Source: a virus
Lineage: Duplodnaviria > Heunggongvirae > Uroviricota > Caudoviricetes
Virus record (IMG/VR): IMGVR_UViG_2671181050_000015
Span: 1-4,334 of that record
Direction: 5' to 3' (one strand)
DNA length: 4,334 nt
Part shown: one piece after another, positions 1-4,334 of the stretch
Layout of the letters: every line of letters starts with the position of its first letter
How positions within the stretch are numbered: the stretch's first letter is position 1
The notes under the pieces: generated by a model
Database searches by the model: none
What the model saw: only the letters and a program-made list of their open reading frames with translations
Told to the model about the DNA's origin: nothing
Made by a program: the position numbers and the translations under genes

Positions 1-222
1 ATGGCAGATATCATTGATTCAGCATCAGAAATTGAAGAATTACAGCGCAATACAGCAATAAAAATGCGTCGCCTGAACTACCAGACTGTATCCGCAACTC
101 ATTGTTGTGAGTGTGGCGATCCGATAGATGAACGAAGACGCCTGGCAGTTCAGGGTTGTCGGACTTGTGCAAGTTGCCAGGAGGATCTGGAGCTTATCAG
201 TAAACAGAGAGGTTCGAAGTGA
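1..222 (+). CDS. TraR/DksA-family C4-type zinc-finger protein (73 aa), phage/plasmid TraR type
   Basis: Complete ORF from ATG at 1 to TGA at 220-222. Translation contains C-x2-C-x17-C-x2-C (CCEC...CRTCASC) and an acidic N-terminus (MADIIDSASE). The core CECGDPIDERRRL...C..CQ resembles F-plasmid TraR as I recall it (CEACGNPIPEARRK...C.ECQ). Stop overlaps the next gene's GTG start (GTGA). Confidence 0.8.
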   Translation: MADIIDSASEIEELQRNTAIKMRRLNYQTVSATHCCECGDPIDERRRLAVQGCRTCASCQEDLELISKQRGSK

Positions 223-818
223 GCGAAATTAATTATCAGGCACTGCGTGAAAAGGCAGAGAAAGCAACTAAAGGAAGCTACATCGTAGGGCATACATCTG
301 TTAACCAACACGGCAATTTAACAGGAGTTTTTGTTTGTCAAAAATGGAAAGGAGAACCCGGTGGCGTGATTGCGGAATGTCATGTTAACTGCCTGATTGA
401 AACAGATGCTCAGGCTTATGCAAACGCTGAATTCATAGCAGAGGCTAACCCGGCTACCGTGCTGGCACTGCTGGATGAACAGGAAAGAAACCAGCAATAC
501 ATCAAACGCCGCGACCAGGAGAACGAGGATATTGCGCTTACGGTTGGGAAGCTGCGCGTTGAGCTTGAAGCAGCAAAATCAAAACTCAACGAGCAGCGCG
601 AGTATTACGAGGGAGTTATCTCTGATGGGTGCAAGCGTATTGCTGAACTGGAAGCGCGGGAAGTTCAATTACCGACTCGCTACGACCTTCGATATGGACA
701 CCCGATAAATGCAGATGAGCGACAAGTCATGATACCTAAAGAAAATGGCAGTTGGCTTTACCTGATTGACCTAGAACACGCATTACGCGTCGCTGACATT
801 CGCATCAAAGGAGAGTGA
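219..818 (+). CDS. Ea22-like (ead/Ea22 family) coiled-coil prophage protein, 199 aa
   Basis: GTG start at 219 preceded by GAGG (209-212) at 6 nt spacing. No in-frame ATG until near the C-terminus, so GTG is the likely start. N-terminal NYQALREKAEKA... and ANAEFIAEANPATVLALLDE followed by a heptad-rich central region (KLRVELEAAKSKLNEQ) match my recollection of ead/Ea22-like prophage proteins. Family call is from memory. Confidence 0.6.
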   Translation: MSEINYQALREKAEKATKGSYIVGHTSVNQHGNLTGVFVCQKWKGEPGGVIAECHVNCLIETDAQAYANAEFIAEANPATVLALLDEQERNQQYIKRRDQENEDIALTVGKLRVELEAAKSKLNEQREYYEGVISDGCKRIAELEAREVQLPTRYDLRYGHPINADERQVMIPKENGSWLYLIDLEHALRVADIRIKGE

Positions 819-819
819 T

Positions 820-1335
820 ATGGCGTTAACACACCACGAACTCTGTCAGATTGCGTACAAGTTCCTTAAGCGCAACGGGTTCAAGGTTTGCTTTCATGAC
901 CGCTTTGTTGCTGTAACCAGTACCGGAGAACAGCCAGATGCTATGGGATTCAGAAATTCAGCATCATGCCTGATAGAGGCGAAGTGTTCTCGTGCTGACT
1001 TGTTGGCAGATAGAAAAAAGCGTTTCCGTAAAAATCCCTCACTTGGCATGGGCGACTGGCGATTCTTTATTAGTGAGCCGGAAATTATTTCAGTTGAGGA
1101 TTTACCTCCCGGCTGGGGATTACTTCACGTTGTTAACGGAAGAGTACGGAAAGTACATGGATGGCCCAGGGGTAATTGCTGTTGGGGTAATCCTGACGAT
1201 AAGCCATTTACCGGGAATAAGCAGGTTGAATGCGATTACATGTTATCTGCATTAAGGCGCATGGAGTTGAGAGGGCACCTTAATGAAATATATGACGGTG
1301 TGATTGTTAATAAGAAAGAAGGAAACGCGGCATGA
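820..1335 (+). CDS. PD-(D/E)xK nuclease-fold protein (possibly MmcB-like), 171 aa
   Basis: ATG at 820 with AAGGAG (808-813) 6 nt upstream and 1 nt after the previous stop. Canonical signature present: P39-D40 (nt 934-939) then E53-A-K55 (nt 976-984), i.e. PD-x12-ExK. Stop overlaps the next start (ATGA 1332-1335). Confidence 0.6.
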   Translation: MALTHHELCQIAYKFLKRNGFKVCFHDRFVAVTSTGEQPDAMGFRNSASCLIEAKCSRADLLADRKKRFRKNPSLGMGDWRFFISEPEIISVEDLPPGWGLLHVVNGRVRKVHGWPRGNCCWGNPDDKPFTGNKQVECDYMLSALRRMELRGHLNEIYDGVIVNKKEGNAA

Positions 1336-2276
1336 TCACTATTACCAAAGGGCGACTGCTGACAATCAAGCAGTGGCGCGAAACATACGGACCGGGTAGC
1401 AACGTTGTACTGCCAGCAGAAGAAGCGGAAGAACTGGCACGGATTGCACTGGCATCATTGGAAGCAGATCCAGTTAAACGAGTTAACTCAGATCAGATGC
1501 ACCGAGTCTGCTTAGAAGCTAATCGCTATTTAGATAAATATGACGCGATGGCAAAAGAGGTAAATAAGTTGCTTGGACGCATCGCCCCACCAGCGCCAGT
1601 ATTTAACGGCGAATACGGTGACGCATATCAGGGCGCTCGTGAAGACCTGTCCATCTGGAAACGGCGAGCGCTTGAAGCTGATGAGCACGTTCGGCGACTG
1701 GAGCAAATCAATGACCACATGGTGAAAGAGGCGCAGGGAGAATCACGCATGGGCGAGCCTGTAATACGTGAGCCAGCACCGGTAGTGCCTGAAGAAGCAA
1801 CTCCGGAAAACGTAGAAATGCTCTCTGGCTATGTTTCAACGTACAAATTAACCGATAGCGAGCGCGATATTGCTGCCGAAATATGGAACGCCTGCCGCGC
1901 CGCCATGCTTCAGTCCGGAAACTTTCGGGAAAACAAGAATTCGTCAACCAATAATTTTCGGGAAATCGCGGAAACGTCAACCAACTATCCGGCAATTCCT
2001 AGTGAGGTGTTGTCCGCAATCCTGAAGGTTGCCAGGATTCGTGCCGATTTCGATGATTTTGACGGTGACAGGCGAGGTATCGGTGATTGTCTGGATGAGG
2101 CTGAGCAAGAGCTTATCGTTACCATTAACAAATATGCCAGTCAGTTGGCAGCAGAACCTATAGCGCCTAATGACGTTCGAGAGCAGACAGCCATTCCACA
2201 AGTTCCGGTAACTCCGGATGGTTGGATAAGCTGTAGTGAGCGAATGCCGGACGACAGGCAGGAGGTGAATCAATGA
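1332..2276 (+). CDS. Hypothetical prophage protein, 314 aa, ending inside a DUF551-like motif (DGWISCSERMPDDRQEV)
   Basis: ATG at 1332 overlapping the upstream stop; GAAGGA 8 nt upstream. Long uninterrupted frame with ordinary codon composition. The C-terminal WISCSERMPDD resembles the start of the DUF551 domain (W-I-x-[VC]-x-[DE]-R-[LM]-P-[ED]) but the ORF stops about 15 residues into it. Contains an internal 11-aa tandem repeat (NFRENKNSSTN / NFREIAETSTN). Confidence 0.6.
   Translation: MITITKGRLLTIKQWRETYGPGSNVVLPAEEAEELARIALASLEADPVKRVNSDQMHRVCLEANRYLDKYDAMAKEVNKLLGRIAPPAPVFNGEYGDAYQGAREDLSIWKRRALEADEHVRRLEQINDHMVKEAQGESRMGEPVIREPAPVVPEEATPENVEMLSGYVSTYKLTDSERDIAAEIWNACRAAMLQSGNFRENKNSSTNNFREIAETSTNYPAIPSEVLSAILKVARIRADFDDFDGDRRGIGDCLDEAEQELIVTINKYASQLAAEPIAPNDVREQTAIPQVPVTPDGWISCSERMPDDRQEVNQ
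1920..1985 (+). repeat. Imperfect 33-bp tandem direct repeat (2 copies) inside the 314-aa ORF
   Basis: Unit 1 (1920-1952) aactttcgggaaaacaagaattcgtcaaccaat versus unit 2 (1953-1985) aattttcgggaaatcgcggaaacgtcaaccaac. 25 of 33 positions identical, in frame, giving the 11-aa duplication NFRENKNSSTN / NFREIAETSTN. Confidence 0.7.
2260..2267 (+). promoter_or_regulatory. Shine-Dalgarno (AGGAGGTG) for the 27-aa peptide gene
   Basis: AGGAGGTG at 2260-2267 is an 8-nt perfect complement to the 16S rRNA 3' end, placed 5-7 nt before ATG 2273. It lies inside the last codons of the upstream ORF. Confidence 0.6.
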
Positions 2277-2356
2277 GCTGGCCTGATGCAATCGTAACTC
2301 TGGGGGTGGTATTCGCAGCAGCGTTTGTTGTGTTCTCGATTTGTCGATGGGGATAA
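2273..2356 (+). CDS. Small hydrophobic single-pass membrane peptide, 27 aa (MSWPDAIVTLGVVFAAAFVVFSICRWG)
   Basis: Not in the supplied ORF track (too short). ATG 2273 overlaps the upstream stop (ATGA) and follows a perfect SD at optimal spacing. A roughly 19-residue hydrophobic stretch is flanked by an acidic N-side (D5) and a basic C-side (R25). Fills the only otherwise non-coding 84-nt gap in a compact operon. Confidence 0.5.
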   Translation: MSWPDAIVTLGVVFAAAFVVFSICRWG

Positions 2357-2360
2357 CCAC

Positions 2361-2603
2361 ATGTTCGCTTTGATTCAACGCGGTCAGATATACACGGACA
2401 GAGCTGGATACCCCGTGGTGATTACTCGCATCACTGAGCACTCAGTGTTCTTTCGACGGATGGACGGACGATCCGGGCGGGTACGCATTGGTGAGTTAAA
2501 CTGCCTGTTCGAACATATTGACCACCAGGAGTACCGCAAAATTCTCGCGGACACTGAGCAGGAAAAGCACCTGAAAAAATTACGAGCCATAAAAAGGAAG
2601 TAA
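2361..2603 (+). CDS. Small prophage protein, 80 aa, DUF4222-like with basic C-terminal tail
   Basis: ATG at 2361 preferred over the TTG at 2325 used by the ORF track: it sits 4 nt after the peptide stop, GGGGA lies 8 nt upstream, and it avoids overlapping the peptide gene. Pattern IYTDRAGYPVVITRI...VFFRR resembles small DUF4222-type prophage proteins as I recall them. C-terminus KHLKKLRAIKRK is strongly basic. Confidence 0.5.
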   Translation: MFALIQRGQIYTDRAGYPVVITRITEHSVFFRRMDGRSGRVRIGELNCLFEHIDHQEYRKILADTEQEKHLKKLRAIKRK

Positions 2604-2606
2604 AGA

Positions 2607-2741
2607 ATGAATAAAGCATTTGAACGATGGGTCCACCAGCGTTACGGCAATCGCTATGACCTGACGCGAGATGTTGACGGCTTCTACTGTCGTGAAGTTG
2701 TGAAGCGAATGGTTGAAGTGTGGTGCCACTGCCGTGGATGA
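2607..2741 (+). CDS. Small Cys/His/Trp-rich protein, 44 aa (MNKAFERWVHQRYGNRYDLTRDVDGFYCREVVKRMVEVWCHCRG)
   Basis: Not in the ORF track. ATG 2607 lies 3 nt after the upstream TAA, with AAGGAAG (2594-2600) 6 nt upstream. Ends at TGA 2739-2741, 18 nt before the xis start. Contains C28, C41, C43, H10 and H42 (WCHC). Confidence 0.45.
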   Translation: MNKAFERWVHQRYGNRYDLTRDVDGFYCREVVKRMVEVWCHCRG

Positions 2742-2759
2742 AAATTTTATGAGGTTGGC

Positions 2760-3014
2760 ATGCAGACAATCATCTATCAGATAACCCCCAGCAAATGGTG
2801 TACGGAGAGAGTCCTCATTGCATCAACAGGGCTAAAGCCTGGCACCATTGAGCGGGCAAGAAGAAAGTCATGGATGCAGGGAAAAGAATACCGCCATTAC
2901 GCTGTAGAAGGTGATCCGGGGCACTACAGTGAATGCCTGTACAACATCGAAGAAATTATGCGATGGATCGAAAACCAGAAACAACCAGGTGCCAAAAATG
3001 CAAGTTCCGGTTAA
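2760..3014 (+). CDS. xis: Putative excisionase / recombination directionality factor, 84 aa
   Basis: ATG 2760 with GAGG (2751-2754) upstream. Small basic protein immediately upstream of and co-directional with the integrase. The pattern W-x(~11)-TIERARR-x2-W-x2-GKEY parallels the lambda-Xis-type arrangement (W...TVRRW...GREY) as I recall it. Confidence 0.6.
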   Translation: MQTIIYQITPSKWCTERVLIASTGLKPGTIERARRKSWMQGKEYRHYAVEGDPGHYSECLYNIEEIMRWIENQKQPGAKNASSG

Positions 3015-3047
3015 CCTGTTAATGCTCCTGGACGTCTGGGAGGTTTA

Positions 3048-4334
3048 ATGAGTAACGCATCATACCCGACAGGCGTTGAAAACCATGGAGGATCACTCCG
3101 TATATGGTTTCACTATAATGGCAAACGTGTCAGAGAAAACCTCGGTGTTCCTGACACAGCCAAAAACCGGAAGATCGCTGGTGAACTTCGCACTTCCGTT
3201 TGTTTTGCAATCAGAATGGGGAGTTTCGACTACGCCGCGCAGTTCCCTAATTCCCCTAACCTGAAACACTTTGGTCTGGGAAAAAGAGAGATAACCGTTA
3301 AGGCACTTTCGGAAAAATGGTTGGACCTTAAGAAAATTGAGATTTGTGCGAATGCACTTAACCGTTACCAGTCAGTAATTAAAAACATGTTACCAATGTT
3401 AGGTGAAAAAAAACTGGTTTCATCCATAACAAAAGAGGATTTACTTTTCGTAAGGAGAGATTTGTTGACCGGTTACCAAAAGCTTTCTAATGGAAAGACT
3501 TCTTCCATAAAAGGGCGCTCAGTGGTCACGGTAAACTACTATATGACAACCATAGCTGGAATGTTTCAATTTGCAACAGATAATGGTTATACCTCAGGAA
3601 ACCCATTTAACGGTCTGGCTCCCTTAAAAAAGTCCAAGGTAAAACCAGATCCTCTCACCCGTGACGAATTTATTCGTTTTATTGAGGCTTGCCGTCATCA
3701 ACAAACAAAAAACCTGTGGATTCTCGCTGTATACACGGGTATTCGTCACGGGGAGTTGGTATCGCTGGCATGGGAAGATATAGACCTTAAAGCAAGGACT
3801 ATAACCATCCGTAGAAATTATACAAAACTTGGCGAATTCACTCCACCAAAAACCGATGCAGGCACCGGAAGGACAATTCATCTGGTTCAACCAGCTATTG
3901 ATGCTCTTAAAAGCCAGGCGGAAATGACCATGCTTGGAAAGCAACATTCTGTAGAGGTGAAGCAGAGGGAATATGGGAGAACTGCTGTGCATAAATGCAC
4001 TTTTGTTTTTAGTCCTCAGGTAACAAAACAGCAGCAGTTGTCCGGACCTCACTACAAGGTTGACTCCATCAGGGAGTCATGGACAAGTATCTTAAAACGC
4101 GCAGGTCTGAGACACAGAAAATCGTACCAATCCAGGCATACTTATGCATGCTGGTCACTTGCCGCTGGAGCTAATCCTAGTTTTATCGCAAGCCAGATGG
4201 GCCACATAAACGCACAAATGGTATTCAATGTTTACGGAGCATGGATGAAAGACAACAATCACGAACAGATAGAACTCCTTAACAAAAGACTATCTGAAAG
4301 TGTCCCATGTATGCCCCATAAGAAAGTGGGGTAA
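3048..4334 (+). CDS. int: Tyrosine-type site-specific integrase, 428 aa, with N-terminal arm-type DNA-binding domain
   Basis: ATG 3048 with GGGAGG (3038-3043) upstream; TAA at 4332-4334. N-terminal PTGVENHGGSLRIWFHYNGKRVRENLG is the arm-binding (DUF3596-type) motif seen in IntS/IntR-like enterobacterial prophage integrases. Catalytic signatures present: TGIRHGEL (Arg box I), SRHTYA (box II) and GH...VYGAW (His and catalytic Tyr). More AT-rich than upstream genes. Confidence 0.93.
   Translation: MSNASYPTGVENHGGSLRIWFHYNGKRVRENLGVPDTAKNRKIAGELRTSVCFAIRMGSFDYAAQFPNSPNLKHFGLGKREITVKALSEKWLDLKKIEICANALNRYQSVIKNMLPMLGEKKLVSSITKEDLLFVRRDLLTGYQKLSNGKTSSIKGRSVVTVNYYMTTIAGMFQFATDNGYTSGNPFNGLAPLKKSKVKPDPLTRDEFIRFIEACRHQQTKNLWILAVYTGIRHGELVSLAWEDIDLKARTITIRRNYTKLGEFTPPKTDAGTGRTIHLVQPAIDALKSQAEMTMLGKQHSVEVKQREYGRTAVHKCTFVFSPQVTKQQQLSGPHYKVDSIRESWTSILKRAGLRHRKSYQSRHTYACWSLAAGANPSFIASQMGHINAQMVFNVYGAWMKDNNHEQIELLNKRLSESVPCMPHKKVG

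Follow-up and report, generated by a model that had tools for sequence, protein, structure and literature searches.

A probable 27-codon gene for a predicted single-pass membrane peptide appears to move as a cassette among Escherichia coli phages

Several described systems are close in form to the gene considered here, a 27-codon open reading frame (ORF) with its own Shine-Dalgarno (SD) sequence in 4,334 nucleotides of Caudoviricetes DNA (IMG/VR record IMGVR_UViG_2671181050_000015, positions 1 to 4,334; this whole stretch is hereafter called the window). MgtS, AcrZ, PmrR, and CydX of E. coli and SidA of Caulobacter are single-pass inner-membrane micro-proteins that bind larger membrane proteins. 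They function through helix-helix contacts, and they resemble the peptide in their size of 20 to 50 amino acids (aa), single hydrophobic helix, short conserved interface motifs, and frequent omission from annotation. They have no sequence relationship to it, however, and the peptide family is phage-borne and travels as a mobile unit of SD and ORF. The type I toxins (Hok/Gef, TisB, DinQ, Ibs, and Ldr) are alike in length and are also small hydrophobic inner-membrane peptides; in many phages the peptide cassette lies immediately upstream of a hok/sok locus. Unlike these toxins, the peptide has no Hok/Gef match, antisense RNA, promoter of its own, or structured leader, and it is translationally coupled within an operon. 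Lambda Kil and Rac KilR offer a likeness of setting, as small accessory genes of the lambdoid early-left operon that are expressed on induction; lambda Kil has no sequence similarity to the peptide, and Kil is a soluble FtsZ antagonist, not a transmembrane (TM) peptide. The Pf3 coat protein, a virion structural protein of a filamentous phage, is inserted by YidC as an N-out/C-in single-span protein. Its short acidic N-tail, single hydrophobic helix, and Arg-Trp at the cytoplasmic interface make it an analogy for insertion only, as it is not homologous to the peptide and the topology of the peptide is only predicted.

The gene consists of two features:

2260-2267, + strand: Shine-Dalgarno sequence AGGAGGTG, within the final Q-E-V codons of the upstream gene, at the 5' edge of the conserved cassette
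2273-2356, + strand: 27-codon ORF for MSWPDAIVTLGVVFAAAFVVFSICRWG, a predicted single-pass membrane micro-protein, with its TAA stop at 2354-2356

A spacer of 5 nucleotides (nt), AATCA, separates AGGAGGTG from the ATG at 2273-2275. This ATG is the earliest start codon in the peptide frame downstream of the preceding in-frame stop, and it overlaps the upstream stop TGA (2274-2276) as ATGA. An earlier note on this DNA, made from the sequence alone, had described the SD, the 5-nt spacing, the start at 2273, and the overlap, and every coordinate matches the sequence. The ORF also fills, as the note had pointed out, a gap in the operon; this one, at 2277-2360, measures 84 nt, and no other intergenic gap in the window exceeds 33 nt. 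The note had further held that so good an SD match is unlikely by chance. Since 18 of 200 shuffled windows contained at least one copy of AGGAGGTG (one observed in the window, 0.09 expected), the motif by itself is only weakly improbable, and this part of the argument draws its strength instead from conservation of the SD across 40 combinations of flanking sequence.

Comparison with relatives indicates that the peptide ORF is very probably a real gene. A tblastn search with the 27 residues returned full-length matches of 52 to 63% identity in phages 933W, VT2-Sakai, ArgO145, and Av-05 and in a phage filed under Actinobacillus. We sampled IMG/VR in two ways, by aligned peptides (at least 531 confirmed relatives) and by a degenerate DNA pattern. 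The main sample, made up of IMG/VR copies and other fetched loci, holds 210 copies with 51 distinct intact ORF sequences and 32 peptide variants. All 51 sequences have 27 codons plus a stop. The ORF is intact in 198 of 201 copies, and the other three have a 1-nt deletion in the start region; these damaged copies, found at two loci, have lost one C from ATGACCTGG to give GATGACTGG, which puts the ATG out of frame, and are rare pseudogenes.

Variation within the ORF follows the proposed reading frame. Column entropy sums to 8.3, 6.8, and 21.9 at codon positions 1, 2, and 3, parsimony on a neighbor-joining tree gives 35, 37, and 105 changes at these positions, and the nonsynonymous-to-synonymous ratio (pN/pS) is 0.31 in frame versus 1.14 and 1.71 in the two shifted frames. 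Because the pattern used for the main sample forced W3-P4-[DE]5-A6 and C24-R25-W26 (codons 3 to 6 and 24 to 26), we reran the coding test on codons 7 to 23 alone. In this unconstrained core, pN/pS is 0.43 versus 0.74 and 1.35 in the shifted frames, with 33, 29, and 69 parsimony changes at positions 1, 2, and 3. The synonymous and third-position excess is confined to the proposed frame, apart from the antisense frame that shares its wobble positions, where pN/pS is 0.33, as expected. These sequence comparisons show the cassette to be under purifying selection at the protein level.

The limits of the conserved unit are sharp. We clustered the flanks of 89 distinct contexts, each comprising 60 nt upstream, the 84-nt ORF, and 60 nt downstream, which sorted into 16 classes upstream and 17 downstream, joined in 40 combinations; column conservation was computed with one representative per combination. 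Conservation stays at a background of 0.35 to 0.6 up to about position -15 and then rises, reaching 0.93 to 0.97 in the GGAGG core (-13 to -9) across the 40 combinations. Within the ORF it is high, dipping every third base, and at the first base past the stop it is 0.35 to 0.45. With edges at the SD and at the stop, the conserved unit is thus exactly SD plus ORF. A purine-rich SD-like motif is kept in every upstream class, and of the 32 classes into which the upstream protein tails fall, 30 have the ATGA overlap at their stop. We opened four phage loci: the gene whose stop overlaps the start of the match as ATGA is a different one in each, and the downstream regions differ as well.

An SD, start, stop, and length that stay fixed across 40 flank combinations are the decisive evidence that this is not a chance ORF. 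Features looked for in small genes generally (conserved start, SD, frame, length, and stop) are all found across diverged homologues. The earlier note had proposed an alignment of homologous regions for conservation of frame, start, and SD and for synonymous bias; this comparison was positive, with pN/pS at 0.31 to 0.43 and with SD, start, and stop kept. The block of SD and ORF has been shuffled as a unit among many neighbors, in temperate lambdoid and Shiga toxin (Stx) phages, in phage-plasmids, and in at least one virulent phage, and such a sharply bounded, repeatedly reshuffled block offers a clean case of a minimal mobile gene in phage mosaicism.

Downstream neighbors of the cassette include DUF4222, a hok/sok promoter, at least eight different terminator-like GC hairpins, and several unrelated genes. 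Only in the window's own clade is DUF4222 constantly downstream, and the 44-aa gene that follows it in the window (phrog_3871) is unlinked to the peptide outside that clade. Partnership with the adjacent 80-aa and 44-aa proteins, which had been suggested for the window, is therefore not a property of the family, given 17 downstream classes that include hok/sok promoters, hairpins, and unrelated genes. In 46 copies, including that of 933W (locus L003, positions 1582-1640), a hok/sok module begins at the first base past the peptide stop. This abutting module consists of a promoter-like TTGCGG...TAGAAT and the 5' end of hok mRNA, and the peptide cassette and hok join module to module.

Two other readings of the same DNA were rejected. 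The first takes an antisense 30-aa ORF (2270-2362) as the gene. Its ATG lies in the DUF4222-specific flank and its start is not conserved: an ATG-started antisense ORF is present in 34 of the 89 distinct contexts and missing from 10 of the 17 downstream classes. The antisense frame is open in 49 of the 51 sequences because of codon composition. A 250-aa antisense "ORF C38" is annotated across the peptide region and its neighbors in the Stx2 phage II record (AP005154.1; locus L326, positions 201-950, minus strand) and is probably a spurious call. The second reading is a structured RNA element; the predicted fold of 2215-2375 is no better than that of shuffled sequences (z = +0.6), and no Rfam family matches the window on either strand at E <= 1.

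The gene is widespread. Of 5426 complete E. coli genomes, at least 1007 matched a 101-nt query; a single genome holds as many as four copies, at least 1349 E. coli copies were counted in all, and 150 of the sites lie on plasmids. It also occurs in 70 phage records, including the Stx phages 933W and VT2-Sakai, ArgO145, and the virulent Vequintavirinae phage Av-05. By tblastn, matches occur in 226 plasmid records from E. coli and Salmonella, near DUF551 or "eaa" genes; 217 of these plasmids are non-mobilizable, mostly 90 to 120 kb, and their size, mobility, and gene content suggest that the carriers are phage-plasmids. A collection with one genome per species yielded only eight loci, and its long contigs are solely from Escherichia and Shigella. 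Three short contigs (369 to 1780 nt) filed under Acinetobacter idrijaensis, a Segatella copri metagenome-assembled genome, and Xanthomonas pisi carry near-identical copies of the E. coli phage cassette, and most likely represent contamination or mis-binning and not true hosts.

Annotation of the gene is sparse. The window's 84 nt are left empty both by RefSeq, through the Prokaryotic Genome Annotation Pipeline (PGAP), and by the GenBank phage record, and the peptide is likewise unannotated in three further RefSeq genomes, in the 933W, ArgO145, and Av-05 records, and in Stx2 phage II. The earlier note's description of the gene as unlisted holds for the five RefSeq records examined, none of which has a RefSeq/PGAP annotation of the peptide, but it does not hold for the family as a whole, since a sister variant has been deposited as a 27-aa "bacteriophage protein" or "hypothetical protein" on 79 contigs. 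A collection of 15 billion proteins does not contain the 27 aa exactly as the window encodes them, and the peptide sequence appears in no searchable paper. Searches with the window peptide gave no match in Pfam (E <= 1), NCBIfam (E <= 10), PHROG, PADLOC, or PDB sequences, and the sole PHROG signal for any variant was to phrog_22915, "membrane protein," at E = 0.1.

Extended forms of the peptide led to the same family. We ran HMMER exhaustively against 1.84 billion cluster representatives with a 30-aa in-frame extension as the query, and only seven clusters emerged, each being either the peptide family itself or a gene call that starts farther upstream or runs beyond the peptide stop. The 40-aa extended form matched nothing but entries named "hypothetical protein." A fusion with 121-aa DUF551 proteins, as a cluster formed on the exact sequence might imply, was rejected: the members lack the peptide, and partial or extended gene calls account for the grouping. 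The peptides form a new, undescribed family within the known class of small single-pass phage membrane proteins. What surprises is the prevalence, the omission from the RefSeq records examined, and the sharp modular boundaries, more than existence itself. The gene is present in at least about 1 in 5 complete E. coli genomes, including the Shiga toxin phages 933W and VT2-Sakai; being omitted from the RefSeq records examined and having no entry in a family database, the peptide is systematically missed by pangenome, transcriptome, and proteome analyses.

The family consensus is M-[TS]-W-P-[ED]-A-F-x-x-x-G-x-x-x-A-x-x-x-x-V-[YF]-S-I-C-R-W-G. Residues 6 to 24 (19 aa) have a mean Kyte-Doolittle hydropathy of 1.7 to 2.8 in all 32 variants and core substitutions remain hydrophobic, so that each variant has a stretch of conserved character that could span a bilayer. 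The acidic residue 5, R25, W3, and W26 are conserved, also in a sample anchored on DUF551 in which the pattern was not forced; P4R and C24F are single exceptions. The acidic N-side and basic C-side that had been noticed around the hydrophobic stretch are D5 and R25 of the window peptide, whose residues 6 to 24 average 2.63. Ala, Thr, Gly, and Ser abound in the core, whose hydrophobicity is only moderate, and the peptide shows neither amphipathic nor cationic character. Rough sums of insertion free energy, on approximate scale values, are -1.85 kcal/mol for the window peptide and -2.7 to +3.2 kcal/mol across variants. An acidic residue 5, an N-tail with no basic residue, R25, and Trp at both ends fit a predicted single-span topology with the N terminus out and the C terminus in.

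A lipoprotein or signal peptide was considered for the same residues and rejected. A lipobox requires a basic n-region, [LVI][ASTVI][GAS]C, and a mature chain beyond the Cys; here the N terminus is acidic and has no basic residue, Ile or Val precedes C24, and three residues follow the Cys. A conserved helical face formed by G11, A15, and residues 18 and 22 was also rejected, the conservation moment at 100 degrees being nonsignificant (permutation P = 0.65).

Taken as a whole, with its mechanism, the account that we think reasonably likely is that the SD and 27-codon cassette makes a single-pass inner-membrane micro-protein that acts by specific binding within the membrane. The cassette would be transcribed with the early-left operon toward xis and int, and the peptide would then be made after induction or infection and not in a repressed lysogen. 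Translation would begin at the strong SD, or ribosomes that terminate at the overlapping TGA would re-initiate at the ATG. The peptide would insert into the inner membrane with its acidic N-tail (W-P-[DE]-A) outside, C-R-W-G in the cytoplasm, and its flanking Trp residues at the interfaces, in the topology of small YidC-type substrates such as the Pf3 coat protein. It would bind a host or phage membrane protein within the membrane and serve an accessory function in host takeover, and would not act as a non-specific lytic peptide.

Our preference for specific binding over non-specific killing is weak. We hold it because the tightest constraint falls on the two interface motifs and on G11 and A15, because the Ala/Thr/Gly/Ser-rich core is moderately hydrophobic in a peptide that is neither amphipathic nor cationic, and because the cassette frequently lies directly beside the hok killer locus. 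That temperate phages, phage-plasmids, and a virulent phage have all kept the cassette speaks for a portable function, which may be directed at something conserved in the inner membrane of enterobacteria. Once identified, the target of the peptide could point to a novel means of host-envelope manipulation by phages or to a novel small inhibitor of a membrane protein.

Several points weigh against this account. Conservation of the terminal residues rests on the smaller unforced samples, since the main search pattern imposed W3-P4-[DE]5-A6 and C24-R25-W26. The start-region deletion in 3 of 201 copies indicates that some prophages can do without the gene. A Salmonella Indiana plasmid, NZ_CP031191.1 (locus L216, positions 1501-1575), encodes a 24-aa variant, MSWPEAFAIVGVAMAIAAIFIFWG, that lacks the Cys and the Arg. 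The insertion sums are borderline for many variants, and with no significant helical face (P = 0.65) the helix-packing mechanism is drawn from composition only. The timing of expression is inferred from operon position. Finally, the ribosome profiling (Ribo-seq) catalogue for enterohemorrhagic E. coli (EHEC) Sakai covered only ORFs of at least 30 aa (93 bp), which is above the length of the peptide (Huecker 2017). The Salmonella plasmid is about 103 kb, is typed as non-mobilizable and IncHI1B, and is phage-plasmid-like.

The alternative that survives best, although we consider it unlikely, is that the peptide is a membrane toxin that kills the host or arrests its growth, Kil-like or type-I-like, by accumulating in the inner membrane on induction, self-associating, and either dissipating the membrane potential or blocking division. 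In size, hydrophobicity, and single helix the peptide resembles TisB, DinQ, Ibs, and Hok-class peptides, and the near-invariant G11-x-x-x-A15 could support self-association; its core, however, is only moderately hydrophobic, rich in Ala, Thr, Gly, and Ser, and not amphipathic or cationic, and the strongest constraint is on the terminal motifs and not on bulk hydrophobicity. The early-left accessory region is the site of lambda kil, and in a virulent phage the peptide is found among small early genes, but the neighboring hok/sok locus, often directly downstream, already supplies a killer.

Searches for toxin relatives and for the apparatus of a type I system were negative. The earlier note had raised both a Kil-like and a type-I-toxin-like role. 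For the former, neither Pfam nor PHROG gave a match that would relate the peptide to Kil, and no homology was found to Hok/Gef or any toxin profile; for Hok/Gef (PF01848), the window peptide gave no match in Pfam at E <= 1 or in NCBIfam at E <= 10. As for the latter, we found no Rfam RNA, no excess of promoters or terminators, and no stable RNA fold. An antisense-RNA antitoxin is absent by the Rfam search (E <= 1, both strands), and there is no promoter-like site on the minus strand near 2260-2360. Nor does the ORF have the promoter and structured mRNA of its own that mark type I toxin genes: promoter-like and terminator-like sites in 1700-3100 are at chance level, with none flanking the peptide ORF, the fold scores z = +0.6, and translation of the ORF is tied to that of the upstream gene through ATGA.

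Next, and improbable in our view, is that the peptide is the dedicated membrane partner of the upstream protein, typically a DUF551 protein, with the ATGA coupling giving stoichiometric co-synthesis and the peptide tethering or regulating its partner at the membrane. The overlap in 30 of 32 upstream tail classes favors this reading, and most upstream genes end in a DUF551 C terminus that contains the SD. The upstream gene seen most often has a DUF551 domain at its end (...WMPLPEPPQEVNQ*), and its final codons make up the SD; another encodes a dATP/dGTP pyrophosphohydrolase with DUF551 fused to it. Genes that are not DUF551 genes also precede the cassette, however, among them the ArgO145 gp10 type, 933W p77, and Av-05 gp123, which have no Pfam domain.

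The window itself speaks against a dedicated partnership. Full-length DUF551 proteins end in ...PLPEPPQEVNQ*, whereas the window's 314-aa protein matches only positions 1 to 16 of the 68 in the DUF551 profile, at residues 297 to 312, and then continues as QEVNQ*. Its DUF551 domain is internally deleted, with the peptide SD and ATGA preserved, so that the domain is cut to 16 residues while the peptide is intact. Close relatives of the 314-aa protein are still named "DUF551 domain-containing protein" in RefSeq.

Seventeen copies have no upstream gene of at least 40 aa at all, which also counts against an upstream partner. In these copies, which belong to the upstream class "AATGAAAATCGAATACCAGGACGCCGCAGGAGGTGAATCA", the peptide frame stays open as far back as an ATG that lies 13 codons farther upstream, and gene callers consequently report a 40-aa protein, MKIEYQDAAGGESMSWPD..., in which the conserved SD still precedes the internal ATG.

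The relation to DUF551 was also approached from the other side, with an unforced sample of 134 distinct segments retrieved by the DUF551 C terminus alone. The family ORF follows this C terminus in 29 of the 134. Unrelated small TM-like ORFs follow other DUF551 genes in 9 of 104 cases versus 16 of 685 after control ORFs (Fisher P = 0.003), an enrichment that favors a link but whose control is crude and whose matches are not phylogenetically independent. Seven IMG/VR loci illustrate such ORFs, whose starts mostly overlap the DUF551 stop; among their sequences are MNKCNALLYAMVIGFGLAAGIRVYIAWESLINLAWSAIRG, the MITFLLGFTLGTIFGVVGIVCVAIMYDKHHPDD family, and MPPVKVVIITLVMIVIARIMSGEIGWIW.

A broader form of this idea is that DUF551-type early phage genes habitually precede small single-pass membrane ORFs from at least four unrelated families through overlapping stops and starts, as a two-gene module in which the micro-protein recruits or controls the DUF551 protein at the inner membrane. 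We regard it as quite doubtful. If true, the module would give the first functional handle on a very widespread phage domain of unknown function; the peptide could also offer an initial hint of what the DUF551 genes usually found upstream of it do.

Least probable is that the act of translation or the DNA alone matters and the peptide is functionless, the ORF being a ribosome relay across the junction (for anti-polarity or to feed the downstream gene) or a conserved linker for homologous recombination between phage modules: although the window stop lies 4 nt from the DUF4222 ATG and the last codons, TGG GGA, supply an SD-like GGGGA 7 nt upstream of that ATG, and although the block sits precisely at mosaic junctions and conserved boundary sequences have been proposed for lambdoid phages, amino acids are conserved while third positions vary (pN/pS 0.31 to 0.43, three-periodic), all 32 variants replace core residues only with hydrophobic ones, the ORF never departs from 27 codons, and at least eight downstream classes have a terminator-like hairpin directly after the ORF, which leaves nothing to relay to.

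The window as a whole is the distal end of a lambdoid early-left operon, and all of its genes are on the + strand; it is the xis and int genes that place the peptide cassette at this end. Its other features are as follows:

1-222, + strand: TraR/DksA zinc-finger protein
219-818, + strand: Ead/Ea22 protein
820-1335, + strand: 171-aa protein with no family match (Pfam, PADLOC), "hypothetical" in the phage record, between the Ead/Ea22 and 314-aa genes
1332-2276, + strand: 314-aa protein with a C-terminal DUF551 remnant, ending QEVNQ*
2277-2360: 84-nt gap holding the peptide ORF
2361-2603, + strand: 80-aa DUF4222 protein (Pfam DUF4222, 8e-14), with a RefSeq start at the position equivalent to 2361
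2607-2741, + strand: 44-aa protein (phrog_3871 at 3e-31, unknown function), hypothetical in RefSeq
2760-3014, + strand: excisionase (DUF1233/xisR)
3048-4334, + strand: tyrosine integrase

The central proposal of the earlier note is supported, that of a genuine small gene, translationally coupled and with a hydrophobic single-helix product, in an early operon of a prophage. This operon, of the early-left type, has genes for TraR, Ead/Ea22, DUF551, and DUF4222 as well as xis and int. The integrase adjoins mlrA in an E. coli chromosome that is nearly identical. The 44-aa protein (2607-2741) has a Cys/His-rich end, VEVWCHCRG.

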